From Raillietiella orientalis (Eukaryota), in the NCBI GenBank assembly GCA_036172245.1, contig JAYWIR010000029.1:620001-684000 (forward strand): DNA of 64,000 nucleotides. The letters are read 5' to 3'. Numbering within the stretch: the stretch's first letter is position 1; each line of letters starts with the position of its first letter. Positions 1-61,366 of this stretch are shown here, one piece after another. Both the position numbers and the translations under genes were made by a program. The notes beneath the pieces are model-generated. The model worked only from the letters and a program-made list of their open reading frames with translations, had not been told where the DNA came from and made no database searches.

Positions 1-784
1 GGTGCAGGAGTAGAACGCAGGAAAACTCCACCCGCGACAGCGTCGCAACGGACGCACGGATCGACTCGTCTGGGCCAGCTGGTCATCAGCCAGCGAGGTC
101 ATAGTCGAACCCCCAGGCTCCGAAACTGAGGCGAAAGCGAAGGCAATCTGGACAGTCTTTGGGCAGGCCGGGAAGAGGGAGTGGGGAATTTTTCCCAAAC
201 AGGACGCCGAGCTCCGCTGCCTGCACGGACGCCCGAGGCGGACTCCCGACCGCCTCGAGCAGAAGGAGGATGGCGATCGCTCCTTCCCCGAGGTCTCCCG
301 CGCGCTCCGGAGGACGGGAGTGGGCCGGCCCAGGAGGTTTCACGCGGAAAGGAACCCCAGGAAGGAGGCGAATGGGAAACGCAAAGAGATCGGGAAGCAG
401 CCGGGAATCTCCCGAGCTGCGGTTGCCGTCGAGAAGTCGCGAACCGAGAAGTTTCGGGAAAACGAGGGGGCGGGCAGAAACGACGGCCAGAGGAAGGTCA
501 GGGAGGGGGCATCGGAAGCGCGCGCGCTGAGGCGAAAGAGGGGATGCAGGAGAGACAGAGGGAAGGGGGCAGAGCAAGTGCGCGCTCCCTGATTCGACCC
601 CAGTATCTGGCGCACCGGAGCGCTCAGCTGGCGCAAAAGGTGCGTCACGGGAACGCAGGCATGGCTTCTCGGAGCCGCTGTGGCGATCGTCCTCGAGGGA
701 AAGTAGGGGTGAGGGACTGAAAATGCGAGCCAAGCCCTCTCCCCCATCCCTTCAAATGCGGATGCCGGATCTGCAGAGTAGTCG

Positions 785-1065
785 CAGTCGCTCGATCCTT
801 TGGAGCTGAGAGCGGACGCGACCCGAGGTGAGCTCCATCCGAAACTCCCCTCTCTCCACTCCCTCCCCAGACTCACGATTTCCGGGAAGAAGGGGCCCAT
901 GAGGGACCAGGAGATGCTCCCGAGGAACAGCGCCATCACTCCGTTGAGCACGATCCCGAATCGATGGCGCACGGCTTTGGGAAGGCACACGCTCTCCATC
1001 CTGGTGACTGCCGGTCCCCAGCGCTACGGGCTCCACATCTCGCCCGGCAAATGGTGTCACCTCCC
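785..1065 (+). mobile_element. Highly decayed non-LTR retrotransposon RT fragment
   Basis: One frame reads SLDPLELRADATRGELHPKLPSL ... NSAITPLSTIPNRWRTAL ... RYGLHISPGKW. Order and spacing resemble the RT motifs S(D/E)PF..GVRQG..LSP.LF, YADD.LL and GL.IN..K. Catalytic residues are lost. By-eye match only. Confidence 0.33.
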
Positions 1066-2504
1066 TGACTGCCGGAACGCGAGGCGTCGCGCCGTCGGGA
1101 AGGCGGTGAGGAGAGGGAGGAGGGGGGGGGGGGTAGAAGGAGCTGGGAGAACCTCCTGCGCGAACGCACACTTCGACAGCAAACATCCCGCGCTGCCGCG
1201 CAAAGGGCAAACAGACGCGCGAGCGGGCAGCTGCGGGAAGAAAAAGGCACGCTCGCGTGCGCGTGCAGTCACGCTCCCTGTGAGCATTCCTGGAAGCGAT
1301 CTTCCGGGAGGCTGCCTCAGCCGAGCTCGCGGCACGGGAAGTGGCAAGTCTCCGCGGAGCAGGCAGGTGGGAATGCCGGTGCGGGTAGGCCGCAGGGGGG
1401 AGCGGAGGCGGGAGGAAGGCGCCCCGGGGTCGAACGCACCTGTCCGCGGGCCTCGGTGCGGTTTCCCACGAGCTCTGGTTCCGTGAAAGCGGGCCACCAG
1501 GCGGCGGACCTGGCGACGTCTTCCCTCGCTGTGCCCACCCTCCTCTTCGCAGCGCAGGGTGGGAAATGAGTCCCCCGGGACAAGTTGGAGCAGGGGTCGG
1601 GCTCGCACTTCAGGAGGAGACTCGAAGCTTCCCGGGACCCTCCTTCTTCCCAGCAAAGCGCGCTCCGTCGACGCCCCAAGATGGAGCTCCTCCCCCGCGC
1701 CTGCTCCCTCGGCGAAAGGTCCCTCGAGGGGAGAAGTCCTCCATCCTTCCTCCCCATCCTTCGTCCCCCCCCCCTCCCCGTTGCTAAAGAGCCCAGGAAA
1801 GACTCTCTAAGGGTCCTATGATGTCACTCGGATGTACCTCACATCCCGCCTGTGGCTCCTCGAACGGGTCGGAGGGAGACAACAGCAGGAAGGGCCCGCG
1901 TCTCCCGCTAGCCTCCCTCCGCATCCCCTCCCCTGAGCACCAGCAGCCTCCTCCCCAGGACTCCCTCGAGCCCACTGAGAAGACGCTCTGTGGCTAAGGA
2001 GACGACGCCCTTTCGGCAGCGCCTCGGGGAGGAATGGGGCGGCATGGCACCGGAAGTGGCAAGCGGAAGCGTCCCGGATGGCGGCTTCCCTTCCGCTTTC
2101 CCCTCCTACTCGCAACGGGAGGGACTCTCCTGCTTGTCTTGCTCCGGAGACCCTCCCACCCCTTCCTCCTCCTTACTCGTGGCTCCCTCCTCTCTTGCTT
2201 CCCGGCAAAGAGAGGTCGCGTCCCTTGAACCGCCTCCCTGCCGACGGTGCCGCCACGTCTTCCCGGCTGGGTGGAGAACGCCCTCCCCTCTTCCTCTCCT
2301 TTCCTGCTCATACCGGACCCCTCTGGGGATATGGTAACTCACCCCTGAGAAGCACTCCCGCTTCCAGGCAATGGAGAAGTGGAGGAGGGACGAAGGAGAA
2401 GGGATTAGAGGGAAGGCTCGTCCGACCGGTAGCAAAGGGGTAATCAGCAAGGAGTTTCCGGTAGCTTCTGCAACGGCTGCGCTTTCCCTGCTGCCACTCT
2501 GCCG

Positions 2505-2665
2505 GTTGCTATGGCCCCTGAGTCGCTCCTTCACAGCAGCCGATGGAACCCCTTTTCTCTCTCATTCTCGAGGATCGCCGTCTGAGGGCGCTGCCGGAGT
2601 CGCGCCAGAGGGTTGCCATGGAAGTAAAGGGGGAAGGACCCTTATTCCTTCCGCACGGGGGCGCT
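2505..2665 (+). mobile_element. Possible decayed RTE-like LINE RT fragment
   Basis: LSRSFTAADG, then after a frameshift PLFSLILEDRRLRAL...VKGEGPLFL. This resembles LS.PF...G(VRQG)..P.LF.L.LE..R.L...INGE.L..L. By-eye match only. Confidence 0.22.
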
Positions 2666-4482
2666 CTCGACCGGCTTCTGCTGCTGCACACATCACGCCT
2701 TCCCCCGCTCAGTTCCCGCAGAGCGGACGCGAGGACCGAGAGATGCTTCCCCCTTTTGGTCCCGTTCCTCCACCAGCAGCCTGGGTGTCTCTTGGGCCGC
2801 GCGCGGCCTCCCCGCGAGGGCCTCCCTCGACTTGGACGAGGACGGTGCGCAGTGGGCCCGCACCTCCCCTAGGCGGCACCGGAAGAGCCCGCTACGAAGC
2901 GGGGGCGCCCGTGTCTGCGAGGGTCGGCCGGTGCGAGGCGGGCGAGCACCCGTCTCCCGGGCGACGTGGCTTCCCACGGATCCGCGGAGCAGCTGGAGCT
3001 TCCCCCCGCCACTGCGAGGATGCAGCGACAGCCGGTTCGCCAGTGCCTCGTGCTCGGCGGGGTGATGACGCTGCAAGTGGTTCGGGGTCTACGGAACTGC
3101 GCTGCGCGCGCGGCTCGCGGGAAACTGGCACACTCTGGTGGCGTGGCGGTGAGCGAGGAGCTGTTCCCATCCCAGGTGCGGGCGCGACCACGCGACCCTT
3201 TGCACCTGCGCCGCTCAACGAGCTCGTCTGCAGGAGGAATTTGTGGCTCGGGGCGAGCATCGGAACGATGTTCCCTGGTTGCCCTCGGGAAGACGGGCTA
3301 AGTTCCGCCAATGGCGCCAGGAGGAAGGCGGAAAAAAAAAGGGAGGAAGAGCAAGCAGACGAACTTCAGTACTCGACCCCTCTCTTATTCCTTCAAGCTA
3401 CCGTCTCGCATCGCTCGAAAACGAAGGTCATGATGGTGGGAAGGGAAGGGGGAGAGAAACTTCGAGGCTAGGGGTTCTCCTGAACATCCCCCTCATCTCC
3501 CTTCTGAATCTCCTCGCCTCGAAGAAAACCTCGCTCCGGCGTAGAGGGACAGGAAGAGGAAGCAGGAAGCGGGAATTCCAGTTCCCATGGAGACGGCGAG
3601 GTTCGGTTGGAAATGCAGGGAGCGCACATTGCGAGCGAAGTTCGCGCCCCGCATCTCCGATTTCTTCCATCATCTGGAGATTTCCGTGAAAGGAAGAGTA
3701 TCCACGCGTGCGCCGTGGAGAAGCCGTGCATCTACATTTCCAGCGGCACGTGGCTCTCTTTTCGCAGTCGGCGCGATAAGCGAAGGGTTTTCGCGAAGAA
3801 CGAACTTGCAAGTGTGCTGCGTAGACGGCGGATTCATCAGTTCTGTGTCGCGCATGCAAAAAGGAGACAACTCGGTGGAAGCAGACACTCTTCTTCGCGC
3901 TCTAGCCGCTACCCACGGAGAAAAAAAAGAAAAAACGCGCGCGTGCAATTCTCTCTCGTCACCCGAAGACTTCCGGTAACTGCGGTTGGTGTTCTCCAGC
4001 CCTTCGCGATGCAAGCAGCAAGCAGCCTGACTGGTGCCTGCGGTGGAGGTGGTGGCAGCGACCAGGCAGCACCAAGCTCTTCCACGGTCGGTAAGAGCGG
4101 GCAGGAGTCGCGAGCGGAGACGCTCTAAGGCTTATTTCCTGACTGCTGCTGCGCGCGTTCAACGGGATACTTCGATCCCGGCAAGAAACTCAGGACGGTA
4201 GCACTTGTGACCTCACCGTGGCGAACAAATCCCCCGGGTACATCTAAAAGATAATCCTCCACGACCGTCGTTTCCACCAAAAGCTTAGAAAACGAAATTT
4301 CGGAGATGACGTCACGCATTTTGCAACCCTACAATAAAGGCGCGTGTTGCAGCTGAGAACGCAACACTAACGGCACAAAGTGTTAAGTAATCACCGTCTT
4401 GAAACTTTATATTTTGTTTCCAGTTGCAACTAAGTTACAACTGCATACAAGGCATAAAAGCTCCAGACGCTCGTAAACAGGC

Positions 4483-9274: not shown

Positions 9275-9320
<46 letters not shown>
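9275..9320 (+). repeat. Poly(A)46 homopolymer
   Basis: Uninterrupted run of 46 A, the longest homopolymer in the window. Confidence 0.95.
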
Positions 9321-12005: not shown

Positions 12006-12736
<731 letters not shown>

Positions 12737-13583: not shown

Positions 13584-15263
<1,680 letters not shown>

Positions 15264-15490
15264 TCAAGGTAGTGTATGTGGTTCTTGAGCCACTTATAAG
15301 GGAAGAGGCACCCAGCAAAATTTTAATCAGCAAATATGTTATTGTTGTGAATGAATTCTTAAGTACCATGTTGTGAGCAGCCAGGGAACATATGTAGGGT
15401 CCTGCATGAGGGCCTCCTGTTATTGTTCCCCTCCCCCACCTGAATGTATCCCAAACATTATTAATAAAACAAATTAACCTAGTGTTTCAG

Positions 15491-15600
15491 ACTAGTCAGG
15501 GCAGATGTTTTAGTGCAGGTTGAAAAGAGGCTAGGTAGGCAAGCTAGCATAGAAAGTAGGCAAGCTAGCATAGAAAGTAGGCAAGCCAGCCATGTTACAG
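15491..15600 (+). promoter_or_regulatory. Candidate UAG-rich 3'UTR cassette exon (110 nt)
   Basis: Branch-like TTAAC and GTTTCAG| acceptor ending at 15490; CAG|GTAGGC donor at 15601; 10 TAG (4 of them TAGG) inside. Confidence 0.5.
15535..15590 (+). repeat. 21-bp tandem repeat, about 2.7 copies
   Basis: GTAGGCAAGCTAGCATAGAAA twice, then GTAGGCAAGCCAGC. Confidence 0.92.
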
Positions 15601-15911
15601 GTAGGCCCCTACAGGATCCCATTCTTATTTATTTGTCCTAAAAGGAGCCCATGGCATTTAATTCAGTTCTTACTTTATTTCTTGTTAGCTTTTGTTTTGT
15701 TTGTATATTGGCAGGACCAAATCCAAATTTTTCCCTTTTAATAATCTTTGTGCTTGGTACTAATTTGTTATGTATTTCAGGGTGCTGTGAGCTTCGTGAC
15801 ACCTGAGCAATGGTATGTAATTGGGAAAGGGAGGGCTATGGGTTCTTAACAGATTGAAGTTACTCATGTGACTTGCAAGTGTCAGTGCTGTGATGATAAG
15901 TGCATTAATAG

Positions 15912-15921
15912 AATAAATAAA
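15912..15921 (+). terminator. Polyadenylation signal of the hnRNP gene (two overlapping AATAAA)
   Basis: AATAAATAAA followed by a T/GT-rich downstream element. Further AATAAA at 15463-15468 and 16077-16082. Confidence 0.6.
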
Positions 15922-16825
15922 TGTATCTAAATTGCGATTTTGTCTTGGATTTTTTCATGATGACATTTCATAAGGTTCATCTGTGTGTGCACTACCAAGT
16001 CTAATGAATTCACTGTGGTATCAAAGATGAATATTTCCATTCTTTGGATTGTTTATACATTATTTGTAAGGTGTGCAATAAAGTTTTACCTTTTTTGTGG
16101 TGTCATGTTATTTTCGGTAATTGGGGAGGAATTGGTGCTCAGCACTTGTTTGTGTGTGTGCACAGGTAGTTGAAATTTGTGCTTGTTTTTCCATAAAAGT
16201 AGCCATGTTGAAAGTTGGCTTTTGTGGTTTGTCTTAAGGCACATTGATGTTTGCCTGTTGTGTAACTGTAATCTGGATACCAGTCATTCAGGATTTTGGA
16301 TTAATTTTAGATTTTGCAAGTTTATAAGGGTGAAGTCCGTTGATCAGAGTGAAGTTCATTTTGGGTCATTGTAAGACTGGTTGGTTGCACTGTGCATTCA
16401 CCATATGTGTACAATTTTTAGCAAATTAGTAAATTTGTATCGGATTGGGAAGAGGAAAGTGAAATTTAAAGAAAAAGCTAAAAGTTGCAGCAGATGTCAA
16501 TTTTATTTGTTAAAAACATTTACGGGTTGAAGCCTTTCCATGAATTTCAAGAAAGGAGTTATGTTGCAAACATCATATCAGAGCATTAGTGAGAACTTAT
16601 TTTTTGCCAGAATATTTTCCAGGTACAAATATTCCATTAGTGTGGAAGTTCTCCAAGTACGACATTTTGAAATTTTCATGCTTGTAAAAGGTTTGTGAGT
16701 AATAACATTCTTACAGTGCAGTTGATTAGAACTGATAATTTGTTTTTTTTTTCTTTTGATGGTTTCCAAGATTACAAAATAATTTATGCCCGTACCTGTT
16801 CTAATAAGAGTTGTAATAAGGAGTT

Positions 16826-16858
<33 letters not shown>

Positions 16859-17045
16859 TTGTAAAGGGCCGTCTATTTTGATTTTAACATGTTTATGCTG
16901 ATGTTGTAGGCTAATGAACCATACTGATAGCTAGAGCAGTCACTTTGAAAGTATTTATTTTTTTTTTAATGTGATTATTCTTGTGTAGGTTTATCAAAAG
17001 GTTGAAAGCTGCTTCAGAAATGCGTACAGTACTTTGCGATGTGAT

Positions 17046-23260: not shown

Positions 23261-24114
23261 TGGCTGAACCCGTCCCCGACGCCGGGCGTACAAAGGAGGA
23301 GAGCGGAGCACCTCCGTCGTCGAAGACGTGGTTCATGGGACGAGAGATCTCTTCATATTCTGCTTACTCATTGCATGAGGCATTTCCGTCTGCATGTGTT
23401 CCAACATAATGCCTCGCCGAGAGACTTGAGAATGAGACGCTGAACCAGGAGCTGGTGCTCGCTGGTTCTGCTTTGCTCCAGGAGGGGATTCTCCGCTACG
23501 TCCTGACCTCGTCTTGCAAACAGGCAGCTAGACTATGGTTTGAAGATGGAAAGGAAGCCTCAGGTACTTTCCGGAAGAACAAGGAGAAAGTAATGGTGCA
23601 CGGAAGCAGGGTGACAGTTGTCGTCGGGAGGCTCCGCAGGTGAAGATCTATCCATGCCATAGTTGTTGGCTCGTTGGCATCTCGGGAATGATGCCGCTGT
23701 GAGCGATCTAGATGTTCCCCGGTAGCATGCGGAGGATGTGAGGCATGCAGTGGTTGCCTCTGATATCCGCCGCAGCGGTGCGGCTTGTCTGACGCGTCGG
23801 TTGGAGCAGCTGCCGGACGAATTGTCCATCTCTTCGCTTGAATTGGAAGGCGATCGTCCCGGCCGGAAGCAGGAAAACTTCAATAGTTTGAAGTGTCATT
23901 TTCCTCTTAGAGGTCACAGTGCGCGTGTTCATGGCAACGGCACGCTCGCCGTGACTGCGACACCACGATATCGTGGCGTGGGGACACGCACATCACCGTG
24001 TCTTCATTGTGGGCGTTGCGACGAACGAATCGCCCGCCTGAATCCAGCATGCTTGCCTCACGCTTGTCCGATCGTTCTTGCTACGATCGATGCTGGAATG
24101 CGGGGGTGAGGGAA

Positions 24115-24500
24115 GGGGAGTTCAACAAGAAGAGCTATCCCAGATTCTGGAGCAGCTCCCCCTCTCACTCTCATGGGAGATCCTGGCTCTTGCTTCTGGG
24201 TTACTTGACATTACGTTCTACAGGATCCGGAGGGAATGCCTACTTTCCTGTTTCTTCTCCACGTTGTCGTGTCGTGAAGAAGGAGAGACCAAGGCCTTAG
24301 CGGTCTTTAGCCGCCACCCACCCACCCACCAGCTCATTGGGCAGAGCCTTCTTGCTCTGAGGTGCGAAACCGAAAGGATTCTGGACGTTTCATATACTGA
24401 GAGGAGAACTCGGAGAACTCGATCGATCCGTCCATGTGTCTGGGACACACCGCATTCGTTAGGAGGCTGCGACGGCGAGACTTGGACTTGTCCGAAGGGA
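24115..24500 (+). mobile_element. Decayed L1/Tx1-like LINE RT N-terminal fragment
   Basis: EELSQILEQLP...SGLLDITFYR...EEGET...W..PHSLGGCDGE. Matches the order ELSQAL..MP.KSPG.DGL..EFY ... EGELP ... WRPISLL.CDYK. Confidence 0.42.
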
Positions 24501-27054
24501 GACGAAACGGGAGGAGCGCCAATTAGCGAAAGCATCTCTTGGAAAAGAAGAGGCTTGCAAACGAGTAGGGAAGAGAGCGCTGCAGGCGGTGGCGCCGCGG
24601 CGGACGCAGGGCGAAGCGAAGGAACGGACGAAGAGCAGGGCCCGTGCCCTCCATTTAACGCTGCCGAAGAACGGCAAGGATCCGAGCACGGATGAAGCTC
24701 GAAAGGAGAGCTCCAGTTCTTTTCCCGTTCCTTTCCCCCTACTTCCCGTCGTTTCCTGCCCACAGAAAAGTGGACTTGCGGCTCCTTTTCGGATGAGGAA
24801 GACTTTGGAGAAAACGACATCCCTGCTGTTCTCTTCCACCTGCTTCCCTATCGGGAAATCCCTGAGAAGAATTGGTGGCGCCAAAGTTTCTTCGAACAAC
24901 AGCCAGGAACGAAGCATCTCTCCTTCCTCATCCCGAAGATTCCCCCGGACTGCAGGACGGCAACAGGGAGGACATTGGCCACTTTTTTACCCTCCTCCTT
25001 CCTTCTTCCTCTTCCTCCATCCCGAGCGTTTCCCAGAGATCGATGTTCGTTTGTTGAAAGCAAAGTGGGAAGGGAGGGAGGAGAGGGGGCATGTGTCCCA
25101 GTCATCCTCTGTAGTGCGCGCCCGCCCTTTCCTGGCTGAAGCCAGGAAGGCGGAAGGATGCCTTCTGCGCGCGGCCTCGTCATTTCCTCGAAAATCTGCA
25201 TAATGGCGGGTGGGGGGTGGGCGTGAATGTTTGCAGCGGTCCGCGGAGGAGGTTTCGTGGGGGCTGCAGGCTCGCACATCCTGTCGAAACGACTTTTTGC
25301 CTCGCGGATGGGGCGAGGCACGCCGACGGCGGCAGTAGGGGAAAGGAAGAAGAAAAGGGGGGGCGCCAGCAGGCTGTGCGTTCCTGTTGCTCCCGATTCT
25401 CTATCGGCTGCCGTCGGTTTTTATGGCCACTCTTTTTTTTTCTTTTCCTTTTTCGATTTGTTCGAGGGAGGAGGAGGAAGAAAGGGAGTTGTCGGAGGGA
25501 TGTTCTGACGTGCAGATGTCTCCTCCAATAATGATGAATCAGCGGCAGCCGCCGGACCGGCATATCTCGCCAAGCAGGAGTCTTCCTTCCCGCTTCGCCG
25601 TCGGCGCTAGCTGATTGGCAGATGTCGCTACTTGGGCGAGAACACTTGCAGTTGATAACTCGGGGGAGGGGAGGGAAACCGGCTGCGAAGATCCGATTCT
25701 TCCGGGGGTACGCATCCCTCCCTCTCCTTCCTTTCCCCACCTGGGCAACAGCGGCCGCCCTTCCAGGTCGAATCCTGTCGAGACGCGCTCTCCAGGGGGA
25801 GCAGTCAGGACGGCGGCGTTCTCGTTCCGGCCAAGAGTGAGGTTCCCGCGTGCCTGCAAAGGGACGCCCGCCAGCAAGGAGGCCGAGGTGTGCACGTGGC
25901 CCACGAAGGGGGCCTTCGCGACGAAGCGATCGAGCCGGCGGCGCCGCCAGGCGCTCCCGGAAGCTCCTGGGGTGCTTCGCGGATCTTCGCGCCGGAAAAA
26001 GGAAGAAGAATCCGAAAGACGGAACCTGGACGGGGTGTGTGCGAAATCTGGCGGCGGCAAGCGTCACGGGCGCACCGCCCGTGAGAGAAGGGCGAACGGC
26101 GATTTTCTCTTTGTTCCGAGGGAAGAAGGGGGAGGGAGGAGGAGGAATCGATCCACGAGGGCACCTTCCATCTATTTGCACGCTGCGCCTTGGCTCCGAG
26201 GTCGTGCGCTCCGAGGGCGACCCAGGTCTCCGCTTCGCGTGCCGACGACGGAGTGCAGAGTGTACCGTACGAAACCGAAGGTCTCTTCTGCAAAAATGTG
26301 CCAAGAGCGCTGACGTGATGCGAGGGTCGCGCGCGCGCGGTGTTTGCGGTGTTGCTGCTGGACGGCTCCCGGTGCATCACGCAGGTCCGCTCGCAGCGCG
26401 ATGGCGATGAGTTTGCGCATCCGCGTCGCCACCCCTCAGGCGATGGGTAAGCCGTGGAGCAGGCTGCATTAGGAAATCAAAAGGCGGAAAAGCAGCAGCA
26501 GTCCCTGCGTGTTGAGGATCAGCGCCCACTCCCGATGCCCATATAGTGGGGTCTCGCGAGGGAGCCACCATTCCGGACGGGGGAAATGCCAAGAAGAGAA
26601 TGCTCGTGGGAAGGTTGGCTCTCGCACACACTGCGAAAGAAAAGGGGGGAAAGGAAAAGAAAGAAAGAGAAGAAGAAGATATATGTATGTGTGTGTATAT
26701 ATATATATGTGTGGAGAGAGAAAGACAAGGCAGGAAGAGAAACAAAATGATTTATGAAAGAGAGGTGGCACTGCTGTCGGTAAGAGCTATCAGCCTTCAT
26801 GACGCGCGCGCGCCTCGTACGCGGACGTGCGAAATGGCGTCGCTCCGGCATATGACAAAAAGCAAAAAAACAACGAGGGGGAGGGGGAGAAGGGGTGTGT
26901 GCGTGCTCACGATCCCTCAGGACTTACGATGACGATTCCGGTGGCTCACGGATGCTCCGATCAAGCCGAAAACACCCAAATAGAGAACGAAAGCGCGGCT
27001 CAGGGTGGGTGTAGGCTCGCCCGGGTTTCTCTGCTCATACTCATTTGAGGGCCC

Positions 27055-27096
27055 CACCGGGGACGCGACGGACACCGGGGACGCGACGGACACCGG
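27055..27096. repeat. 18-bp perfect tandem duplication
   Basis: CACCGGGGACGCGACGGA twice, plus CACCGG. Confidence 0.92.
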
Positions 27097-30000
27097 AAAC
27101 GATGATCGATAGATCGCTTTTCTTTGTTGTTGTTTTTCTTTTCTTTTCATGACGCCATGCCGGGAGTTGGCGGGGGGAGGGGGGAACAGTCCAAGAAACG
27201 CGCTGAAAGCGCCGGTTGCTCACCAGGAAGAAGAAGGGGGGGGGGGGGGAAGCGAAAGTTGGCACGCTTGCAGGCCGCTGCAAAGCGTCCTCGGAGGAAG
27301 CGTGCGAAATACTCGCTCGCGCGTGCCTCGCGAGTGACGCACACCATGCTGCGCCCCGAGTTTCGCTCGTCGTTCGCGGCAAGCGTTTGCAGCGTAGGGG
27401 CTGCACGGCCTCAGGGGGAGGCTGAGGAGGAGGAGGGAACGACGGGCTAAGTAAACGGATGGCGAGTGGGTGGAGTCACCGCTGCCACGCGGTCCGTCTT
27501 GTCCTCGTCCTTCGTGCCGTGCGAGGGCAGTCCTTCCCTGTGGTCACCGCTGCACGAATCATGGACGCGGGAGCCGGAACGGCCGCCGCAGGGCACTTCC
27601 AGCTCCAGCCGTGCTGGAAGTGCGCAGACGGGCGCAGATGAGCGACCGCTGGCGGACGGCAGGTGAGGGTGCCCACCAGGGAGGAGGAGGAAGGACGAAG
27701 CGCTCGCCCTGCGAGGATCTTTCGGCGGGGGCTCCACGTGCGTTGTTCGTTCGAGCGGGATGGGTCGGGACTGCTGCCGCGAGAGCAACGCGTCCCCGTC
27801 CCGGACAAGAGCCCCTCCGAGGGATGTAGGTGTGGACGTAGGTACATACGGACGCATCTGCTGCGATTCGGAGAAGGGGGGCAGGAGACGCTCTTCCTTT
27901 CTTGGATGCGCGGCTGCCCCAGTCTTCTTACTCTCAGGCAACCAAGCCCCCCTTTCCCCCTCCGTGAGCGCTGCGTCCTCCGAGGAGGGCAGGGGAGCCG
28001 CCACCACCCCGCTGTCGTCGCGGAGACCAAACTGGCGGTCCCCTGCCCTCCCGGGGAGTGGACGGCGCCTCTATGGCACACGTCTGCGACCGTCCCGAGG
28101 ACTCACGCCGATGCCAGCGCCTCTAGCGCAGTGCCGAGAAAACGAATGGAGCGCGGGACGGAAACTCCCGGCGTTGTCCCGGAGTGTCGGAGGCCGAAAG
28201 AGGTCGTCGGGAAAGAAGGAAGCGAAGCGTAGGGGGAGGATGGAAGGATCCAGGAGTGGTTCGCCCTTGGACCGTCCAGGTGGTAACACCATCCTCTCCT
28301 CCCTCCTTCCCTCTCCCCCCCACATACACATCGTCCTTCCTCCCGCTTACGCGACGTTCTCCCGTGAGGGGGGAAAGGGTTGCTCCCGTGCGATTCGCGC
28401 GCTTCACTGGCAGCAGGTCCGGGAACGAATCGTCCCTAATCGCTCGGAAGACTTTCCTCTCTTTCTCTCAGGGCGACTCCCGGACGCGCGCACAATCGAT
28501 TTTTCCGACGGAAGGGGGCATTGCCATCCCGAGCGTGAGGAGGACGCGCGTTCCCGGGACAGGTGTTGCGCGGAGCAGGCTCGAAAGGAGGAGGAGGGGA
28601 ACAAGGGGTCGAGCGACCCTCCTCTCCCCTCCCCTCCCCACCTTCCTTCCTGCCCCGTCCCTTTCGTCTCCCCGCGGCCGGCTACTCGACGCTGCTGCAG
28701 CGCCGCCGGCCGATCACGTCCTGCGCCCGCGCGCGCGCTTCCATGACGAATCAGATCGCGGGTGCTCTCTCTCAGAGCCGGGTGACGTCACGCGCTCGCG
28801 CGCCTGCTCGGTCGGCGCTCCTAATTCCGTTGCGGGAGGTCCCTTTTCTCTCCCCACCTCGCACTCTCCGAAGTGGGGGAACGTCGCCGCGACCCAAGAA
28901 TCCTTCCTCCCCTCCCCTACTCCTCCCTGCTCCGGGGAAGATGAGATGGTGAAACGGAGACGGGCAAGAAGAGAAGGGGGTGGAGGGAGAGGGAGAAGGG
29001 CATCGTCCATGCCATTGGGAGGGTCTAGGAGAGACCTCGAGGCGGCGGCGGCAGCGGCTTGCTGTTAGGGCTTCGCCTTGGGTGTGGCTTCCTCCCTGTC
29101 TTTGTGGAGACGCGGGCAAACCTCCCTAGGGTGCCCGCCGCAGGTCCCTCGCGGGTCGTGCGGCCTGTGGCGCCGGGCGAACCTGTCGGTCGGGGTCTCC
29201 GAGGAGATGGTGCCCGGGCGGGGTTGAGGGCTGCTTCAACGAAGGGAGATCGCCTCTAGCCCCCGCCTGCATCGAAGGGGGGGGGGGGGAAGAGGTTCCC
29301 GAGACTCCCCCTTCTCCGCGCGGATGCCAGGCTAGCCTGACGAACGAATGCCAAGGTCCGTCCAGAGGTATGAAGTAGGGTGTGCGAATAGGAAAGGGAG
29401 AGAGTCCTCCTGCCTTGCCCAGCTTCCTCCCAGCTTTCCACCAGGACGCCGCCCTCGGTTCCACCGAGGTCACTCCTCTCGCGGTGCGCGTTCGACGCGC
29501 AGGGAGGAGAAAAAAAAAAAAAAAAAACACCCGGCGGTCTCCGAGAGCTTCTGTCGGACAAGAAAAAAAAGGAAGGAAGAAGAAGAAGAGACCAAAAAAG
29601 AAAGGGTGGTGAAAGGGGGAGGGAGATGCTCTACTTGAGGCTCTTCCCTGCTTCCCCGACCTCTTCCTTCCCCTCCTAACCTCCGGCTCGCTTGCCCTGT
29701 CCCGTCCACGAGGGTCGCTTCGGATGCTTCGGAAAACGAGGCGGCGACCTCTCCGCGGTGGTGGCTGGCGACGGCGCTCACCGCGATGAGGGTGAACTCG
29801 TTAATTACACGGGGATGAGCTGCAGACCCAGCTGCATCATCCGACGCGTCAGCTTGAGCCTTTGGACAAACACGGTGGGCACGCTGCGTCCTTCTGGCGA
29901 CGCCGGACATTCTGACGCGCCTGGCAGGGGCAGCCGGGTTCGAAGCTCGCTTGGGGCACGCGCGGATGTTCGGTTCGCCTCGCCTTCCTTCCCTTCTTGA

Positions 30001-37273: not shown

Positions 37274-39049
37274 GAAAAAAAAAAAAACAGATTACGTTTT
37301 TTTTGTGTTTTTTCGTTTTGTTTTTGTTTGGCCATGTTGCCGGGCGCGCGCGCGCGCTTTTTGTAGCGACGATTCTGCACGATTATTTTGGTACAGCGTG
37401 TTGATTCTGAGGCGAGGTTTGTTTCACTCTCGGTCTTGGGAGCGCACCAATCGGGTGTTCACCTAGAAATGGAGTGCGAAAACCCGAGAAGCGTCCTTTG
37501 ATTTCAAAAGATTCTTTTTTAATAGGGGTCTCATTATCCGCTGATTGACGCCAAAACTTGGCCGATGGGAGTTCGCCGCACTACGCTGACCAGGCTGGCT
37601 GCAGCGTGTGGGTCATCTTCAAGCAGCAACGAGCCGAACCGATTTCGTAGGCGAAGGCAGCAGAAGTGTCTCGTATGTCAGTATCCTTCCGTTCGCGATG
37701 AGAACTTCAATTAGCCTAATAGTGGGAGGTCAGTTTCATCTCGGCTCTCACAGATCCATCCTTGCAGTGTTCGTTTCCCTGTGGAACTTTCCAAAACTCC
37801 AGTGTTTCCTAGGAGAAGTGAAAGTGCGACGTTTGCTTCCATGGGTGGCAGCCATAATGATGCGGCGGTGCGCGTGTCACTGGAACTTTCGCGAAAGATC
37901 GTTCCCAGAGGTGATTTTCGTCGGCACCCACTCCGGTGATTCGCCGGACCAAACCAGTCGCTGGGCGCTCCGTTCAGCCTGCTGTCTCCGGGAAACACTC
38001 CAGCGACCGACGTGGTCGCTGGGTGGTCGCTTTGCGGAAAGGCAGTGCCTCCCGGAGCGTTCCAGAGAGCAAATATTCCCGACGCGCATCCTGGAACGGA
38101 TCGACCGGCATCGGCCTATCGGCGTACCGTTGCCAGGGATATTCCCAGAGTGGTCGAGGAAGGGCGTTCCTCGTCCGGGGGCTCCGATTCCTTGCGCGCA
38201 TCCGAAGAATCCCTCTCTCCCGGAGCGGATTTTCGCGCCAATCCCCCCTTCCCAAAGGAAACGCACGTTGTCAGAAGCGCGCGCGTAGCTCCGCAAGCAC
38301 ATGACGCAGAAGGCTTTCTCCCCGAGTCGTTGCTATTCCGTTGTGTAGGGCTGGGGCTTTCGGGAGCTGGAGTCAAAGGAGCAGGCACGCAAGGAGCATC
38401 AGCAGGCATTCCCTCGCGTTCCTCGGACGTCTCCAGTCAGAAAGTGCCGCGAGGCTCGTCTGTTCGGCTTCTCTCACCCTCTATGTCGAGTACGTCAGGC
38501 AATCCTGTGACGAGGACGAGGACGATGGCTACAATGGCGCAGCACCTGTGAGGCTCAGGACAGAAGCGCTGAGGATCGACAAGCCTGGACACAGCGTCCA
38601 CTTCTCCCTCTCGCCTTCAGCTCCGGAATTCGAGGACGCGCGCGACCCAGGCAGGTCGTCGGGTGGTGACTGCGTGCCGAGCTGCGTGTCCGAAAACCTC
38701 TCCCCCTCTCTGTCCTGGGAGCAGGGGTGCAGTTACTTCTCTCCCTCCCCCTCCCTTCCGCTAATCTTTCAAGGAAGCTCCTGGCCATTCCCTCGGCGCG
38801 CGGGTAGTCGCGAGCGGATCCAACGGAAACCGTCCAGAAAAGGTGCTGCCACCTCCGTGAAAATGGGCTCCTCGGCTGACAGCTCCTCTTCGCGGAATTC
38901 TCCCTCCCTTTCTCCCCCTCCTCCTTCGTTTGGCCCTCCTTAGGCTCCTCTCTGATTTCCCGCATCCCGATCCGAGAGTCTTCCAGATCCAGACATCCCC
39001 CGAGCGACCTCCAGACTCGCTGCACTTCCACGCCGGATTTCTGTCGCGG

Positions 39050-39700
39050 ACCGAGCAGCTTCCGGAGAACGTGATTGGTTACAGGAGTATGGATTGGAGT
39101 TCGCTAAAAGGGGCATCGCCCGATGGCATCCCGGAAGGAAGGGGGGAGTTCGCAGCAGCTCCCTGGAGTAGCGCCAGGGAGCGTGCGGTAGCCGCAGAGC
39201 TGGTCGCGACGACGTCCTCTCCTGCGGACGACTCGGCATTCCCTGACCACCCTCGTCTCTCATGCTGGCGCGAGGATGGCCATCGCTCTCCCAGCGGTAA
39301 GCGGGAGCCGAATTCTCAGGCTGGGAACGCCTGATTCCTCCCAGCCGCCTCACGGGGTTACCGCTAGGGAGGAATCAACTCCGCTGACGGCTGGGTTCTT
39401 CACTCGCGTCCCCTGATGCTCGTCCCGGGATGCTGAGGTGTCATCATCACCTGCTCAGATCGAAGGAGAAGGCAGGGAGGGTCGTTCTCGGGGGAATGCG
39501 TGCCTCTGTTCTCAGTAGTCCAGCAAACCCGAGCTGCTCGAAAACCACCCCTGAATGAGAGCCACTTTCCAAGGAGGATCGTTATCAGGACGACGGCGAC
39601 GGTGGCGAGGTGCATGAGCAGCACCGTCGAATTCTAGGGAAGATTTTCATCGATATGAAAATGGCGGCGCGACGGTGATGATGCTGCGGTGCTTGCGCAG
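39050..39700 (+). mobile_element. Possible decayed LINE RT fragment
   Basis: ENVIGYRSMDWSSLKGASPDGIP (GPDGIP-like), RQGGSFSGECVPLFSVV and GDDAAVLA occur in RT order, but the spacing is atypical. Confidence 0.25.
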
Positions 39701-42700
39701 AACCGTTGTCTTCCAGGGAGGAGGGCTCTCAGAGAGAAAGCCTTCCACTGACGCTCGCGGGAAGTCCGTCGGTCTTCATGCCGCGGACCATCTCCGTGCA
39801 ATGAGAGAGAAGACTACTCCGGACTCCTGCACCGCAGGGTGCCCTCCCGCCGTCGCCGCCGCTTTCGGCTCAGCCGGCGCTGTCCGGGGAGGAAAAGGAA
39901 GAGCTCGCGCGCCTCCGGCTGCCGCCACGATTGCAGCTGTGGGTCCGAGGGGGTGAGGGCGCGAACATGGTCTCCCTGGAGACCGCCTATGGCTCAGGTC
40001 CGAAGCGGATTAGAGGCGGATTGCCACCGGTCCCGATCGCGGTCGTCAGTGCTCTCTCGGACTGAACATCTTCCAGAGGATTTGCGGCCCGGCGCCGGAC
40101 TGCCTTTCTTCCTGCTGCTGCTGCTCACATCAATCACTCTGGAACCCTCTTCCCGCCCTCTCCCGCACTCTCCTTTCAGCCCGCCATCCGGGTAGCTTTG
40201 GTCCCTTTCTTCGCGATGAAGATGCCCAAGAGGATCGCGCATCCGGACTCGCTGCCGGGTTTTTACCTTTTCTTTCGGCCGCTGACTTTGGAACGGAAAT
40301 GGCGAATTCCCGTTCGCCTCCTCCCTTCCCGTTCCCTCGTTTCGCAGCGGCGGGACAAACCCGGTCTGGCCGAGGAGTAACCAAGAGACGGGTATTCCTC
40401 TCGTGCGCAGAAGATTTCTTCCGCAGATGAGGCGGATGGTTTGTGGCGTCGCCCTCCGGGAGGAGCCCCGTGATCCTGGCGGGAGGATGGAGAGGGAATT
40501 CTTCCCTCCCCGTCCGGCTGGCGCAGCCCTGTGTGGGTGCACCGCCGCGCGCGGCGAGTGACGCCAACCCTCTTCCCGGCTCGCGTGACGGCGGGGCCCC
40601 CTCGCCAGAGAGCGGAGGGGATCGACCTAAACATGGCCCAGTTGGGCGGCCACTCGTCGGCTCTTCCGTCCCCACCTACCAGGAGCATCTCTGCAGCTTC
40701 TTCGAAGGATCGGAACACCCGGACGGGCGCGCTTCGTCCCCAGGACAGGGGAGGACGATCGCCCTTTTCCGCTCGTGGAGAGCGCGGGAACGTTCTTTTG
40801 TTCCGGGATGAGCCTGCCCGCGGTCATCGAGCGAGTGCGAAGCCGTGCCCCCTGGAAACTTCTTCATCCTGCAGGAGACTCGAAGACACTGGTGTGTTCC
40901 AGGAAGGGGTAAAGTGAGAGTTGGGGGGAGAGTGCCCTAATGGGCACCATTCTCCCCCTCTCGCAGGCGGTTTCGAAGCCTCCCTCCCCCTTTTCCGTCC
41001 TCCTGCTCCCGATTCCGGAACCTTGACCCACAGGGGCCGAGGTGGACAAGCGCGCATTTCATCTGCTAAGTAAAGGGGCGCCCATCCCTCCGCTGTCTCT
41101 GCCGTGGTGCATATGGGGGACGGGGGCATTCTCGAACGGACGACGCCGTTCGCCTTCTGGTCCGGCAACGGAGGTAACCTCAAAAGTTGACTCCTCAGGA
41201 TGGTGTGAAGGCCACGAAACAGAAATCCTGAGACGTGCCTGAAGCAGCTGGTCCAACGATCCGAAGATGCTGTAAAGGCAGATTTTCTGTCGACCACGCG
41301 CTCTCACAGAAAGCGTGAGGAGCAACAAAAAAAAAGGGGAAAAAAAGGCCGCTAGACCGTAGTGACATCTGGGGTCTCCCGCCATAAATCGCGAAGGCAC
41401 CTCGGCCGCTCGAACGGAAACCTCCGCGGTGGTAACTTCCGGCTTGTCCTGCGCGAGTGAATTCGTGCTCCGAGCACGAGGTGACCTCATGGGGTGCAGT
41501 CGCGCTCTTTGATGTAGCCGAGCAAGACGGGAACGGGGGTCGGGACTTTCCTCTCTCCCTTGCTCGCGCGGCGTGGAATCCCTCTACCCCCCCGCTCATC
41601 CCGAGCTCCGCGAGGGAGCGCAATCAGATCGCGCGCACGACGCGTCCTTTTCGCTCCCAGCCTGGCGAGTGGTCGCCGCCGCGAGGCACGTCGGGGGATG
41701 TCAGGGCGCTCTCGCTCTTTCGGGCTGCCACGCGCGCGCGCGCGCCTGGGAGTCCTCTCCGGACCTCTGGGACCTGGTGGTGCGCGGTCCGCGTGGGTGG
41801 CAAGGCGCGTCGTGAGAATGCTGTCCCGTCGGTACCACTTCTTTTCATGCCGACGGCGGCGCAGTCGCGGGTCCTCGTTAAGGGTGGCAGACAGAGAGCA
41901 GCTGCGGTTGCTGCTGCACTCGGGAGCAGCGGACGAGCTATTTCTGCGCCATCTTTTCGCCTCTCTCGTCGGTCGCAGCGACGCGCTCAAGCCGTAATCG
42001 TGGGGACTTTCAATCGTTCGCTGCGCAGGGGAGACATCGTGCGGAAGCGAACGGTCGCACAAGGTCGGGTGGGCCGCAAGAATGGCAGGACGGAGCGCAA
42101 GTTGAGCGCGCTGGGATGGGAGGATGGCTCAAAAATTGGCTCAAGATGTTCGCACAATAAGGAGACGAGGCGCAAGATGCGCGAGGCTGCAGACATGAGG
42201 GGTGAAAGCGTCTATTCGTCGAACGCCATCGTTTAGGCCTTTCTGAATTCTTCTGGAGGGGGCATCGGGCCCCAGCATGCTGATGCAAGGAATCCCCTCC
42301 GAGGTGAAAAAGAAGGAAACTCATTCTTCCCGGAAAAGCTACCAGGGATTCCCCCCTGCCCTTCCACTTCTTCTCCTGCTTTTTTTGTCCGCGCAGCACC
42401 GATGGCGGAGGCACCAAAGCTGCATGCGCGCAAGCCTGACGAGTGGACTTTTCCAAATGCTCGAATTCGCGCCGAAGAGGTCAGGCGCGCGCGGCGGTTC
42501 CTATTCTCTGCTTCTTTCGGGTCTTCCTCCCGCGAACGCGCAGATGGCCGGCTTCGCCCGCTCCGCACAGCGGGCTGGTTCCTCGAGGAAGAGGAGAGGC
42601 CTCCCTTCTTCCCTTCTCTATGCGTCCGCTCCCCTGCGTGCGCTGGAGTGGCGGTGATTCCAAATAGGGCATCAGCACCGTGTCCGCGGATGACCGATCT

Positions 42701-45419
42701 CAGATGGGGCGCCCTGATCCTAGATTGGAGCCGCGGGAAAACCGCCCACGGCCCGACTGAACCCCAGCGGAAGAGGCGCCCGCAGAAAAGTGAGCACTTA
42801 GACAGCCACTTGTGCTTTCCCCGTGACGTGTAACACGGAGCTCGCGCATCTCCCGAACTCGTTCACCGCGGAAGGCTGAAAGCCTTCGTTGCACTCAGCG
42901 CGCACCTCAGAACCCGACAGCGGAAGACCCGACGAAAACAAATAGCGGCTGTCTTCACGATGGGCCGCGTTTTCTGGAGCTGCTGCACGCGGATCGGAAA
43001 CTGCCACCCGGAGCGACTGGGAGAATGCTACGTAGTAGTATTAATAGGTTGAGTGCCGGCGCGGGGGCTGCGCGGAGACGGCCCGCTTGCTTCGCAGCGC
43101 CCCTCTCGAGCGAAAGACGCCCAATCGCAGCTTCCAGCTATGCACCCGTCGTTGTGGGCTGCGCGGAATCCGTTGAAGCTTTCGGATTCTCGAGCGCTCT
43201 CCCGTCTCCGTCTCGTGCAAAACGAACCAACAGGACCACCGAAAGCAAGGTGACCAGCGAGGCTGCCGCTTGCTGGTCAGCGTTCCGTTTTGTTCTTCTT
43301 TTCGCCTTCTCGAGCCTGAAAAGTCCATCATTCCCTCCTTGCTCCTGCGAACGATTCCTGCTCGAGCGTGCGAGGGAGAAAAATCTACACAATCGCAACC
43401 TGGAATGAGGAATCATGGGAAAACCACGTTTCCGTCTTGATGCGTATTTTCGGAGCAGGATACTTCCTCTCCCCCTCCTTTGTGGCGATCTCCATTGCCT
43501 GACTACAACCAATCTATTCATCGTTGCTCGCGTTTCCACTGATAGGTTATAAACACAGTGATGAATTGCGAGTGCGTGGTGGACGACCACAACGCAACGC
43601 AGCCCCCATGTGCCGCGACCGCTTTGTTCCAGCGCATTATCTTGTATGAGGAAAATGGAGACCGGGATCGACCAACCAATCAGCATTAGCAGATGGAGCT
43701 GTCATTGCGCTATTCAAAAGCTGGCAACTCATTCATAAAATTACCAGAAGCAAATGGGAACTGTGAATTCCTGATTCTTCAAGGTAGCAACTGCCGTGCA
43801 GCGCCGAATCTTCAGAGAGACGCTTTCCTCGCCGATGGACCGCAACCTCATAAGCATTCAAGAGGGCGTAGGCATCGTGCACTCGACCATTGGAGACTTT
43901 ATGGCATGTGGAGGTTGAGGACATCGTCATCCACCTTGAATAATTGCTGATCAGCATCTATTCAAAGAACGGCGCTACCTTTTTCCTGTGCGGGGAGCAA
44001 GATTGCACCGAGATCATCCGTCCGGCTCTTCCCGAATTCTCTCAAGCGACGAGGTTGTTACCGCTGTGGACGAACTGCGAATCTTTTGACCAACTGTACC
44101 TCATTGATTATTCATCCACGTGCCTTCTGAGTCAAGCCTGCATGAATGCCTCGTAAATTCCATCCTTGAAGACTTGCTCGGTCCAGTGCTCAGAATTTCA
44201 AAACGAAAAACTCAATTCACTTCAAAATCTCATCCCCGAGATCATTCAAGGTTTCATTTTTGTGGAGAAGGGAATCCCCCCTCGCAAAATGTCTTAGGGA
44301 TTTCACCGGAATTTCTCCCTCTTCCCCCCGTGGCCTACCACCTGCCCCACCTTAAAAAAAAAAAAAAAAAAAAAAGAAGGAAAAAAGCCAAAATCTATAC
44401 TCATCAGCTTTTTTTTTTCTTTTTTCTTAATATGATCGTCTCCATAGCATTCCTCATCTCAACTGCAATCGTTTGCTACTTTTTTGGTTCCTGCTCTGGT
44501 TCTTCCTATGAAAAGCATTTATTTGTACATTTGGAGAGTGTTCGTGCTCGGAGATGTGTCTAAAAATAGCCTGCACATACTTTGGCTCCTGTGTACATAA
44601 GTAGATGAATATTTTTAGACTTTGCGAAACTTGTTGGGAGTCTGCGCTCGATCCGATTCTTCTGAAAAGAGTCTCGAAAAAATAAAGTGATCCTTCTTCT
44701 TCTTCGAAACACAACGAGCATCTTTGTGCCTATGGTATGCTCAGTTCGTTTCGGAGATGCGTTTGCCTAAAGAGAAGAGTTCGGTTTTCAGTGGGGTTTT
44801 TTTTTTTTTTTTTTTTTCCTTCTTTGCGGTAAAAGTTGGTTCTCCTTTGATTTACATCTCGCGTGTAAATTTGTCACGCACCGCGCCGCGTTTCCTCTTT
44901 CAGTTCGCGGCACACTACCGAGAGCGCGCGCACAGCCAGAGATGCGAGTGTTGCACTCATCACAAGACAGAGGGGCCGAGAATGCTTTCCCGTGCATCCA
45001 TGCAGGCCGTGATGGCTCCTCGTGCCGGGATGAACAGTCACTTAGGTCCGCCACTTAGGTGTGTTAAAAGGGAACGCGAGATTTTTAGGACCGAGGCACC
45101 GGAGACGAGGCACACTTCATCTTGAATAAGCGTTCGTCGCTGTTATCTTCTTGCTGTTATCAGTGCGTTCGTCTCAAACACACACGCAGGACATCACACA
45201 CGTGAGGATCCCTGGGGTGGAGTCGATTTCTTTCATCCGAGTGATTATTCTCGCAAGATCTTTTTTTCCTTCCTCCCTCCCTCCCCATCCCCTAAATGAA
45301 AATAAGCGATGTCACCGATCTGATCAGCATCGTTCGTGTTTTACACCGCATATCCCTTCAAGGACCGATGAAAAATTTTCGCTTTCTTTGCCCATGACGT
45401 CATTAGGCGAGTGGAGATT

Positions 45420-49804: not shown

Positions 49805-50120
49805 AAGAGGAGGAACGTCTCGCTCCTCTCGCGAGCCAACCAACCCTTTGAGGAATTTCCCGATCCCCTCATTCGGGAGAGGAAGGTGGAAGGGGAAGAA
49901 GGGATGGGCGAACCCGGTGTCCTTTGACGGAGAGCTGCGGTCGCTGCTGCAGCAGTGCACGGAGGCCCCACCCCCGGGGGCTGGATACCTCCTCGGGGGA
50001 AGCTTCAGGAGACGTCCCATAGGAACCGTCACTTCCCTGATCCTACGAGAGTTTCATGCCTACGGGCAGTGAGGTATCTTCCCTCAGCTGGAGGGTTCGG
50101 GAGTTGCTGCGCCCCGAAGA
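49805..50120 (+). mobile_element. Decayed CR1/L2-like LINE RT fragment
   Basis: RRNVSLLSRANQPFEE...IRER, then (frameshift) SFRRRPIGTVTSLILREFHAYGQ*GIFPQL. Resembles RPISLLS...K.FE and DF.KAFDTVPH.LLL.KLHAYGIRG. Confidence 0.45.
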
Positions 50121-61314: not shown

Positions 61315-61366
61315 GGGCAAATTTTCCTTTTTGATGTAAACAAAATATTCTATTAAACTACTACTC
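61315..61366 (-). tRNA. trnV: Mitochondrial-type tRNA-Val(TAC) pseudogene
   Basis: Minus strand GAGTAG-TAGTTTAATAGAAT-A-TTTTG-TTTACAT-CAAAA-AGGAAAAT-TTGCCC: perfect 5-bp anticodon stem, 7-nt loop with TAC, weak D-arm, no T-arm, imperfect acceptor stem. Confidence 0.65.

Follow-up and report, generated by a model that had tools for sequence, protein, structure and literature searches.

Splicing regulators keep their own levels steady by acting on their own transcripts. Vertebrate regulators do so through the splicing of 3'UTRs or poison exons coupled to EJC-dependent NMD, whereas in arthropods NMD targets are believed to be recognised in another way, and in flies these targets are marked by long 3'UTRs and not by exon junctions. 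U1A, HuR/ELAV and TDP-43 are RNA-binding proteins that act on the 3'UTR or the poly(A)-site choice of their own transcripts.

The closest described system is vertebrate HNRNPA2B1, which autoregulates through 3'UTR splicing and NMD (PMC3091714). In that gene a small intron close to the stop codon is 'safe', and the splicing of a further UTR intron gives NMD-sensitive forms that are raised by over-expression of A2. AGG is bound by RRM1 of human A2/B1 and UAG by its RRM2 (PMC5789076); the SELEX site of hnRNP A1 is UAGGG[A/U], to which UAGG is similar (PMC1079783). The latter source also describes, for mammals, exonic UAGG as causing hnRNP A1-mediated exon skipping, which becomes stronger with more copies. 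For Drosophila, PMC2689934 reports that exon junction complexes are dispensable for NMD. The literature that we searched on insect Hrb87F and Hrb98DE yielded neither a description of how arthropod hnRNP A/B levels are controlled nor a paper on NMD or on self-regulation by way of the 3'UTR for these two genes.

The locus considered here lies in a window of 64,000 nucleotides from Raillietiella orientalis (contig JAYWIR010000029.1), this being the whole stretch of DNA analysed; all coordinates refer to it. An initial annotation, made from the letters alone, ascribed a vertebrate-like circuit to an hnRNP gene in this window. Positions 15491-15600 would form a cassette exon inside an intron at 15269-15780; skipping would be safe, inclusion would place a junction 115 nt past the stop and so lead to EJC-dependent NMD, and the protein would tune inclusion, with the repeat number serving as a dial. 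Two of its premises agree with the literature: UAG and AGG are indeed cores recognised by hnRNP A/B proteins (PMC5789076, PMC1079783), and 3'UTR splicing with NMD is indeed on record for an A/B gene, HNRNPA2B1 (PMC3091714). Our analysis indicates that the feature is real and that the proposed cassette and NMD mechanism is unsupported. Judged from sequence, a self-binding element remains plausible but unproven.

The hnRNP A/B gene and the RNA past its stop codon

By its sequence, the gene at 13585-15263 (+ strand) is a pancrustacean hnRNP A/B of the Hrb87F/hnRNP A1 type. The hnRNP assignment of the initial annotation is thereby upheld and narrowed to hnRNP A/B, on the strength of Pfam, PDB and named-protein matches. 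The product carries two tandem RRMs at its N-terminus (Pfam RRM_1), the first of which matches human hnRNP A1 UP1 in a PDB search with E 2.6e-51. The best PDB matches of the protein are hnRNP A1 throughout, followed by A2/B1, and not members of other two-RRM families. Among the matches listed, proteins of insects and springtails that bear the names 'hnRNP 87F' or 'A1, A2/B1 homolog' agree with RRM1 at 86-93% identity, while RRM2 reaches at most 77% identity to named proteins, so that an overall close protein is absent among those matches. The seven-exon model spans 1023 nt and encodes 340 aa, with the frame kept and the sole stop at the end. It contains 55 Gly and 40 Ser, has the Gly-rich C-terminal domain expected of the family and ends in GYAGRRY; the stretch following RRM2 is unusually rich in Ser and Arg.

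The RNA evidence consists of assembled contigs of the two public runs found, X1 and X2, whose word shares are 0.22 and 0.05. The gene and its neighbour comprise the following features.

12200..12736, - strand: HP1-type gene (chromo and chromo shadow pieces), head-to-head with the hnRNP gene; Pfam Chromo E 1.4e-07 and 8.6e-07, Chromo_shadow E 1.3e-06
13585..13596, + strand: probable exon 1, coding (ATG GGA ATT CCG), with GTAAGC next; from sequence, and from the loose end GGGAATTCC of an X2 RNA contig just before 13895
13896..14165, + strand: exon 2, RRM1 (Pfam RRM_1 E 5.3e-17); joint 14165/14329 in X1 and X2 contigs
14329..14539, + strand: exon 3, RRM2 (Pfam RRM_1 E 3.1e-16); both flanking joints in RNA contigs
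14587..14802, + strand: exon 4, end of RRM2 and the Ser/Arg-rich stretch, also the second place in the window where UAG is dense; RNA contigs; Ser codons AGT 12, AGC 2, TCN 4; TAG cluster
14848..14961, + strand: exon 5, rich in Gly, Ser and Asn; X1 contig showing the joint 14961/15018 and, ahead of 14846, the loose end TAGTTGGGGAGG
15018..15146, + strand: exon 6; X1 contig over 15016-15094, frame kept in the 1023-nt model
15193..15263, + strand: exon 7, the last coding exon, ending in GYAGRRY and TGA (15261-15263); from sequence and model, with an X1 contig from 15192

The RNA contigs confirm the introns 14166-14328, 14540-14586 and 14962-15017, and loose contig ends also support the intron 14803-14847 and the joint of exons 1 and 2. 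Of the six introns, four have lengths of 45-56 nt.

Past the stop codon, the following features bear on the proposed splicing.

15264..15414, + strand: 3'UTR in RNA, unspliced, including the proposed donor GTAGTG at 15269-15274; X1 record 4, colinear with the genome over 15192-15414, depth 2.9
15601..15606, + strand: GTAGGC, the donor proposed for the cassette, which is the fourth repeat head after those at 15535, 15556 and 15577; from sequence
15774..15780, + strand: TTTCAG/G, acceptor-like motif, a candidate seen in sequence

The TGA is followed by TCAAG and then by GTAGTG starting at 15269, so the GT proposed as a donor 5 nt past the stop is where it was said to be. Its role as a donor is another matter: contigs of X1 are spliced at 14165/14329, 14539/14587 and 14961/15018, yet the X1 contig across 15268/15269 is colinear with the genome. 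This read-through comes from a single contig (depth 2.9) of a single run, whose labelling as RNA is a guess. An intron of the HNRNPA2B1 type, lying a few nt past the stop and removed in the main mRNA, was accordingly not found, the X1 contig being unspliced from 15192 to 15414. At the other end, the AG at 15779-15780 is present and preceded by a T-rich run, but its status as an acceptor amounts to a motif match. The three junctions by which the proposal could be checked (15268>15491, 15600>15781 and 15268>15781) each lack a joining contig in the two low-depth runs, whose contigs likewise show no use of both junctions that would flank a poison cassette. Read counts, ends and minor isoforms are not visible in assembled contigs, and rare spliced forms would escape them; their cover ends at 15414 (X1) and 14765 (X2), and the lack of cover past 15414 was given no weight, in either direction, in judging the distal UTR, the block and the poly(A) site. 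On this evidence, a reading of 15264-15780 in terms of splicing and NMD is not supported.

The splice motifs themselves allow a similar assessment. All four GT/AG dinucleotides of the proposed cassette are present in passable contexts, with TTTCAG directly 5' of 15491-15600 and GTAGGC directly 3', and to this extent the initial annotation described its signals correctly. Both, however, have simpler readings: the acceptor at 15490 overlaps an AATAAA/CA/GU-rich pattern characteristic of poly(A) sites, and the donor is a head of the repeat. Matches to AG/GTRNG within 15264-15780 number two, each inside the YAGGTAGGC motif of the repeat. The logic of the proposed circuit meets further difficulties. 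The 50-55-nt rule invoked for the inclusion form is a vertebrate rule applied to an arthropod gene, and fly NMD is described as able to proceed without exon junction complexes (PMC2689934). The feedback would also have the wrong sign. Exonic UAGG silences exons in the mammalian work (PMC1079783), so that more protein would cause more skipping and thus more of the 'safe' isoform, that is, a positive feedback and not a homeostat. The precedent of HNRNPA2B1 in vertebrates (PMC3091714) and the grading of splicing outcome by exonic UAGG copy number in mammals (PMC1079783) do speak for a cassette, but with RNA reading through its first donor we regard it as very improbable.

Another reading is a weak, regulated intron of the 3'UTR (15269-15490 or 15269-15780) that holds no cassette. 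The protein would set the ratio of the two forms, much as at 'junction a' of human HNRNPA2B1: splicing would put the block 6-115 nt past the stop and drop the AATAAA at 15463, and transcripts that keep the intron would stop at the poly(A) site within it. In its favour are the GT 5 nt past the stop, the TTAAC-N12-TTTCAG acceptor at 15490 and the small intron that vertebrate A2/B1 has directly past its stop (PMC3091714). In addition, one X1 contig begins exactly at the boundary of exon 7, so mixed forms may exist in the X1 run. Nevertheless, the one contig that crosses the donor shows no splicing, and a joint at this place is absent from all contigs. The proposed donor GTAGTG departs at +4/+5 from the GTRAG common to five of the six introns of the gene, lacking their +4A and +5G, and the GC content of 15269-15490 is exon-like (0.405, compared with 0.255 to 0.40 in the six model introns). 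We therefore consider such an intron quite unlikely.

The UAG-dense block and the poly(A)-site pattern

The block and the motifs around it are as follows.

15463..15468, + strand: AATAAA, candidate proximal poly(A) signal, with CA at 15488-15489 and GU-rich GATGTTTTAGTG at 15504-15515; motifs only
15491..15600, + strand: UAG-dense block (the proposed cassette), with 10 TAG, of which 4 TAGG, in 110 nt
15535..15597, + strand: 21-nt tandem repeat GTAGGCAAGCTAGCATAGAAA, two identical copies and a decayed third
15912..15921, + strand: AATAAATAAA, candidate distal poly(A) signal; motif
16077..16082, + strand: AATAAA, second candidate distal poly(A) signal, with a T/GT-rich run next; motif

Here the initial annotation proved accurate. 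Its count of 10 TAG, 4 of them TAGG, is exact, and the background per 110 nt is 0.67 TAG in the whole 64-kb window and 1.44 in the 10-20 kb part. Of all 110-nt windows in the 64 kb, the block holds the most TAG, 11 at the best offset. The 21-nt tandem repeat said to amplify the motif is there as well: at 15535-15590 it has 2.7 copies with 97% matches, and copies 1 and 2 are 100% identical. About half of the TAG count of the block (6-7 of 10) stems from this single recent duplication, hence those motifs are not independent sites, and the identity of the copies makes the duplication too young to reveal selection. The excess over chance nonetheless survives collapsing of the repeat. With the two extra units taken out, 8 TAG are left in 88 nt, compared with 0.71 expected from the local background (Poisson 8e-7), which argues that the UAG excess is real.

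The block stands next to what resembles a poly(A) site. AATAAA occurs at 15463, at 15912/15916 and at 16077, and is absent from 16083-17000; in this AT-rich DNA its background is 1.0 per kb. At the level of motifs, such AAUAAA in series would fit tandem alternative polyadenylation.

Since the gene encodes an hnRNP A/B protein, since UAG and AGG are cores for this family and since HNRNPA2B1 provides a precedent, a role of the block as a self-binding element for the gene's own protein is plausible on sequence grounds. Our tentative preference goes to a more specific reading, namely that the block is a self-binding cluster in an unspliced 3'UTR, situated by a proximal poly(A) site and steering the choice of 3' end. 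The interval 15264-15780 would simply be the start of the hnRNP A/B 3'UTR, the mRNA being colinear past the stop in the sampled RNA. The poly(A)-site pattern would lie about 200 nt past the stop, with the 110-nt block packed with UAG, UAGG and AGG directly behind it. When abundant, the protein would coat the cluster and mask the GU-rich downstream element; proximal cleavage would then be disfavoured, and transcripts would extend to the signals at 15912-21 and 16077. The resulting distal isoforms would have a 3'UTR of about 0.7-0.85 kb that includes the cluster, and less protein would be made from them. The identity and exon structure of the gene, the UAG excess, the repeat and the read-through are observed; what we infer in this scheme is the binding of the protein, the use of the poly(A) sites, and by which route and in which direction the feedback would run.

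A strong rival to the self-binding reading is that the block is a neutral young repeat. It would be a slippage-born stretch of low complexity (CTAG, GTAGG and ATAG words plus the 21-nt duplication) in the 3'UTR or 3' flank with no regulatory role, its UAG richness being a by-product of composition and duplication. The full identity of the copies and the origin of 6-7 of the 10 TAG in one recent event are in line with such a history. The same holds for RNA structure, as Rfam gave no match at E <= 1 and folding gave no signal (z = 0.36). Moreover, the richness of the coding part in TAG has a trivial cause, its Ser codons being AGT in 20 and AGC in 8 of 40 cases. What such a history would leave to be explained is the 8 TAG that persist in the collapsed block, the membership of the gene product in a UAG/AGG-binding family and the distribution of the motif in the window. 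On the + strand, two places in the 64 kb hold at least 6 TAG per 110 nt, 14619-15048 and 15438-15659, and both are inside the hnRNP gene. Weighing these points, we see neutrality as a possible but somewhat unlikely account.

Early 3'UTRs of related genes

A scan with RRM1 supplied the relatives, 80 loci of which many are full mRNA contigs; a metagenome scan with a lineage-specific peptide from exon 4 returned 594 pattern matches, among them no relatives and no transcripts of the same species. No similarity was found between 15264-16400 and any of the 80 related loci (best E 0.26). This undetected conservation would suit a neutral repeat, and it also counts against the cassette, as conservation of the kind seen in vertebrate poison exons was not found, a weak test given how distant the relatives are (RRM2 at most 77% identical among the named proteins). 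A 3'UTR TAG cluster at p <= 0.005 against mononucleotide shuffles is present in 2 of the 48 relatives tested (L041 and L056), a set that left out loci with an intron-broken ORF or a UTR shorter than 150 nt. The majority are TAG-poor, and the 46 relatives without a cluster again favour neutrality. That UAG clusters are no general trait of the family also counts against the self-binding reading.

A conserved intron directly past the stop was considered and rejected. Of 53 relatives, 2 have a donor-like motif in the 15 nt that follow the stop, as opposed to 61 of 943 control windows (6.5%), which also speaks against a weak intron at the present locus. In L003, the closest genomic relative, a look-alike of the motif lies 40 nt past the stop and leaves no space for an intron, a further point against it. 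Separately, an isoform pair, L024 and L026, diverges 134 nt past the stop, at a place that is not GT/AG, which makes the pair uninformative.

The relatives do share an element of another kind. The word AGGCAGGC has 22 matches within 200 nt past the stop, spread over the loci of 14 of 56 relatives and frequently in two or three copies per locus. Its density near the stop is 2.28 per kb, compared with 0.03 per kb farther downstream and 0.04 per kb in coding sequence. An island, UAGAUAGGGU, lies about 100 nt past the stop and is common to the loci of 5 relatives. From these conserved elements we conclude that stop-proximal AGG/UAGG clusters in mature 3'UTRs are a habit of the hnRNP A/B family. 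Because the RRMs of human A2/B1 read AGG and UAG (PMC5789076), the elements look like self-binding sites. That relatives retain AGG-rich elements at the same relative place counts against a purely neutral repeat. In the mature mRNAs of relatives the AGG-rich element sits 17-110 nt past the stop, upstream of the poly(A) site, and the present block is some 235-340 nt past the stop, behind an AATAAA, a difference that counts against the self-binding cluster. The former distance corresponds to the spliced geometry of a weak intron and not to the genomic one, which is a point in favour of such an intron.

The kinship between the block and the element of the relatives is a resemblance and not a result. 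Exact AGGCAGGC has no occurrence near the present gene, including the 200 nt past the stop, and one in the whole window. The looser YAGGYAGGC is found at 15532 and 15598, which are 2 of its 4 matches in the window. Homology of the block to the AGGCAGGC element was rejected, as a profile of 19 sequences did not place the block among its best 20 window matches; the best match of that profile is elsewhere, with E 0.79. A 20-mer consensus of the relatives' element, allowing up to 7 mismatches, did not match the block either, and a literature text search with the AGGCAGGC string and hnRNP found nothing relevant.

With this in mind, one might speculate that pancrustacean hnRNP A/B genes possess, in the opening few hundred nt of their 3'UTRs, an as yet undescribed module for autoregulation, a multi-copy (C/U)AGG(C/U)AGGC platform for the RRMs of their own protein. 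Its conserved form would be AGGCAGGC, rebuilt in the present lineage as UAGGUAGGCAAG plus the 21-nt expansion. It would work through poly(A)-site choice and the decay of long 3'UTRs, not through exon junctions, and copy number would act as a fast-evolving gain control. We consider this generalisation unlikely as it stands; if true, it would be the arthropod counterpart to the vertebrate homeostasis by 3'UTR splicing and EJC-dependent NMD. Should the block of the present gene be functional, a cluster of self-motifs by a poly(A) site would present the arthropod route in a case both simple and testable, and would illustrate how repeat slippage can alter the strength of a regulatory element. If it is merely a young neutral repeat, it still carries a caution, namely that GT/AG motifs arising inside UAGG-type repeats mimic splice sites.

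Comparison with known systems

The present gene shares with human HNRNPA2B1 (McGlincy et al. 2010, PMC3091714) the protein family, a regulatory sequence, here putative, directly past the stop and the notion that a gene regulates itself by way of its 3'UTR. The differences concern mainly the evidence for splicing. Spliced isoforms of HNRNPA2B1 were seen by RACE, EST and qPCR and responded both to UPF1 knock-down and to over-expression of A2 (PMC3091714). The present gene has one unspliced contig, with no spliced form seen, and its host is an arthropod, where the EJC rule is not established. Likewise, the HNRNPA2B1 UTR is highly conserved across vertebrates (PMC3091714), whereas the present block has no detected similarity in 80 loci.

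The exonic UAGG silencers of Han et al. 2005 (PMC1079783) resemble the block in having multiple UAGG in about 100 nt, and copy number grades their effect. They cause exon skipping (PMC1079783), and the same rule applied here would produce a positive loop; furthermore, the present block is a putative exon.

Drosophila Hrb87F and Hrb98DE (hrp36 and hrp38) belong to the same family by sequence, given the RRM1 identity of 86-93% to proteins named '87F' or 'A1, A2/B1 homolog'. The likeness extends to the Gly-rich tail ending in RRY, and the difference is the Ser/Arg-rich stretch past RRM2 of the present protein. The relatives' AGGCAGGC element and the block have in common the gene family, the early 3'UTR, the multiple copies and the AGG base. 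The block differs in that it contains U (UAGG), lies farther from the stop and has no exact copy of the word near the gene. In terms of layout, the self-binding cluster that we tentatively favour would be most reminiscent of U1A, HuR/ELAV and TDP-43, where a cluster of the protein's own motif likewise lies by a poly(A) site and exerts negative feedback on 3'-end processing; we take this likeness as a lead.

Elements shared by the 3'UTRs of related genes

Among the related loci retrieved by a scan with RRM1, the 3'UTRs of other pancrustacean hnRNP A/B mRNAs carry a conserved element, AGGCAGGC, in multiple copies close to the stop. It is enriched about 70-fold in the first 200 nt after the stop relative to the remainder of the loci. 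A literature text search for the AGGCAGGC string together with hnRNP returned nothing relevant. Five loci also share two islands, UAGAUAGGGU(U) and GGCAGGCAGGTTGTAAGCAG, within a 3'UTR that has otherwise diverged among them. The UAGAUAGGGU(U) island resembles an hnRNP A1-type site of high affinity.

Stop-proximal elements in the related loci
First 200 nt after the stop, AGGCAGGC element: L009, L014, L041-L044, L046, L049, L052, L053, L055-L058
About 90-120 nt after the stop, UAGAUAGGGU(U) island and GGCAGGCAGGTTGTAAGCAG island: L041, L043, L045, L053, L056

Coding region of the hnRNP A/B gene

The UAG-dense block 3' of the stop has a counterpart within the coding exons, where the density reaches 10 TAG per 110 nt. 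Here the TAG triplets are an out-of-frame product of Ser codons: exon 4 uses AGT 12 times and AGC twice versus four TCN, and AGY accounts for 28 of the 40 Ser codons in the whole CDS. This may reflect codon-level selection for self-motifs or mere slippage. In addition, the protein carries an unusual Ser/Arg-rich stretch (...SRSSSS) C-terminal to RRM2, whereas in the proteins of the relatives the Gly-rich domain begins at this place. A Pfam search gave no match for this stretch, nor did the metagenome scan turn up any relative of it. Of the gene's six introns, four measure only 45-56 nt; the RNA contigs confirm two of these four outright and one through a loose end. Between 13942 and 15414, the same contigs show 14 listed differences from the window sequence (about 1-2%), so the source of the two RNA runs is a different strain or a very closely related species.

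Features of the hnRNP A/B gene
14619-15048, +, second UAG-dense stretch, coding exons 4-5
14680-14790, +, Ser/Arg-rich protein stretch
14540-14586, 14803-14847, 14962-15017, 15147-15192, +, short introns

Genomic setting and gene neighbourhood

The window is a GC mosaic, which is unusual for an arthropod. On either side of a gene island at about 4-22 kb (33-47% GC), the GC content rises to 54-71%; in these flanking stretches each of the six reading frames has long open runs, and no gene is clearly recognizable. At a score of 80 or more, the whole window holds only two tandem arrays besides the 21-nt repeat.

Compositional features of the window
1-4000, 24000-30000, 38000-44000, 48000-64000, stretches named for the GC mosaic
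27055-27096, 18-nt unit in 2.3 perfect copies, inside GC-rich DNA
9275-9320, run of 46 A

Within the island, the hnRNP A/B gene (+, probable first coding exon from 13585) lies head-to-head with an HP1-type gene, the two being separated by less than about 1 kb.

12200-12736, -, HP1-type gene with chromo and chromo shadow domains

The arrangement is of the same kind as that of human HNRPA2B1 and CBX3, which are divergently transcribed (PMC2629730, PMC4330381). This pairing may represent an old bilaterian gene pair.
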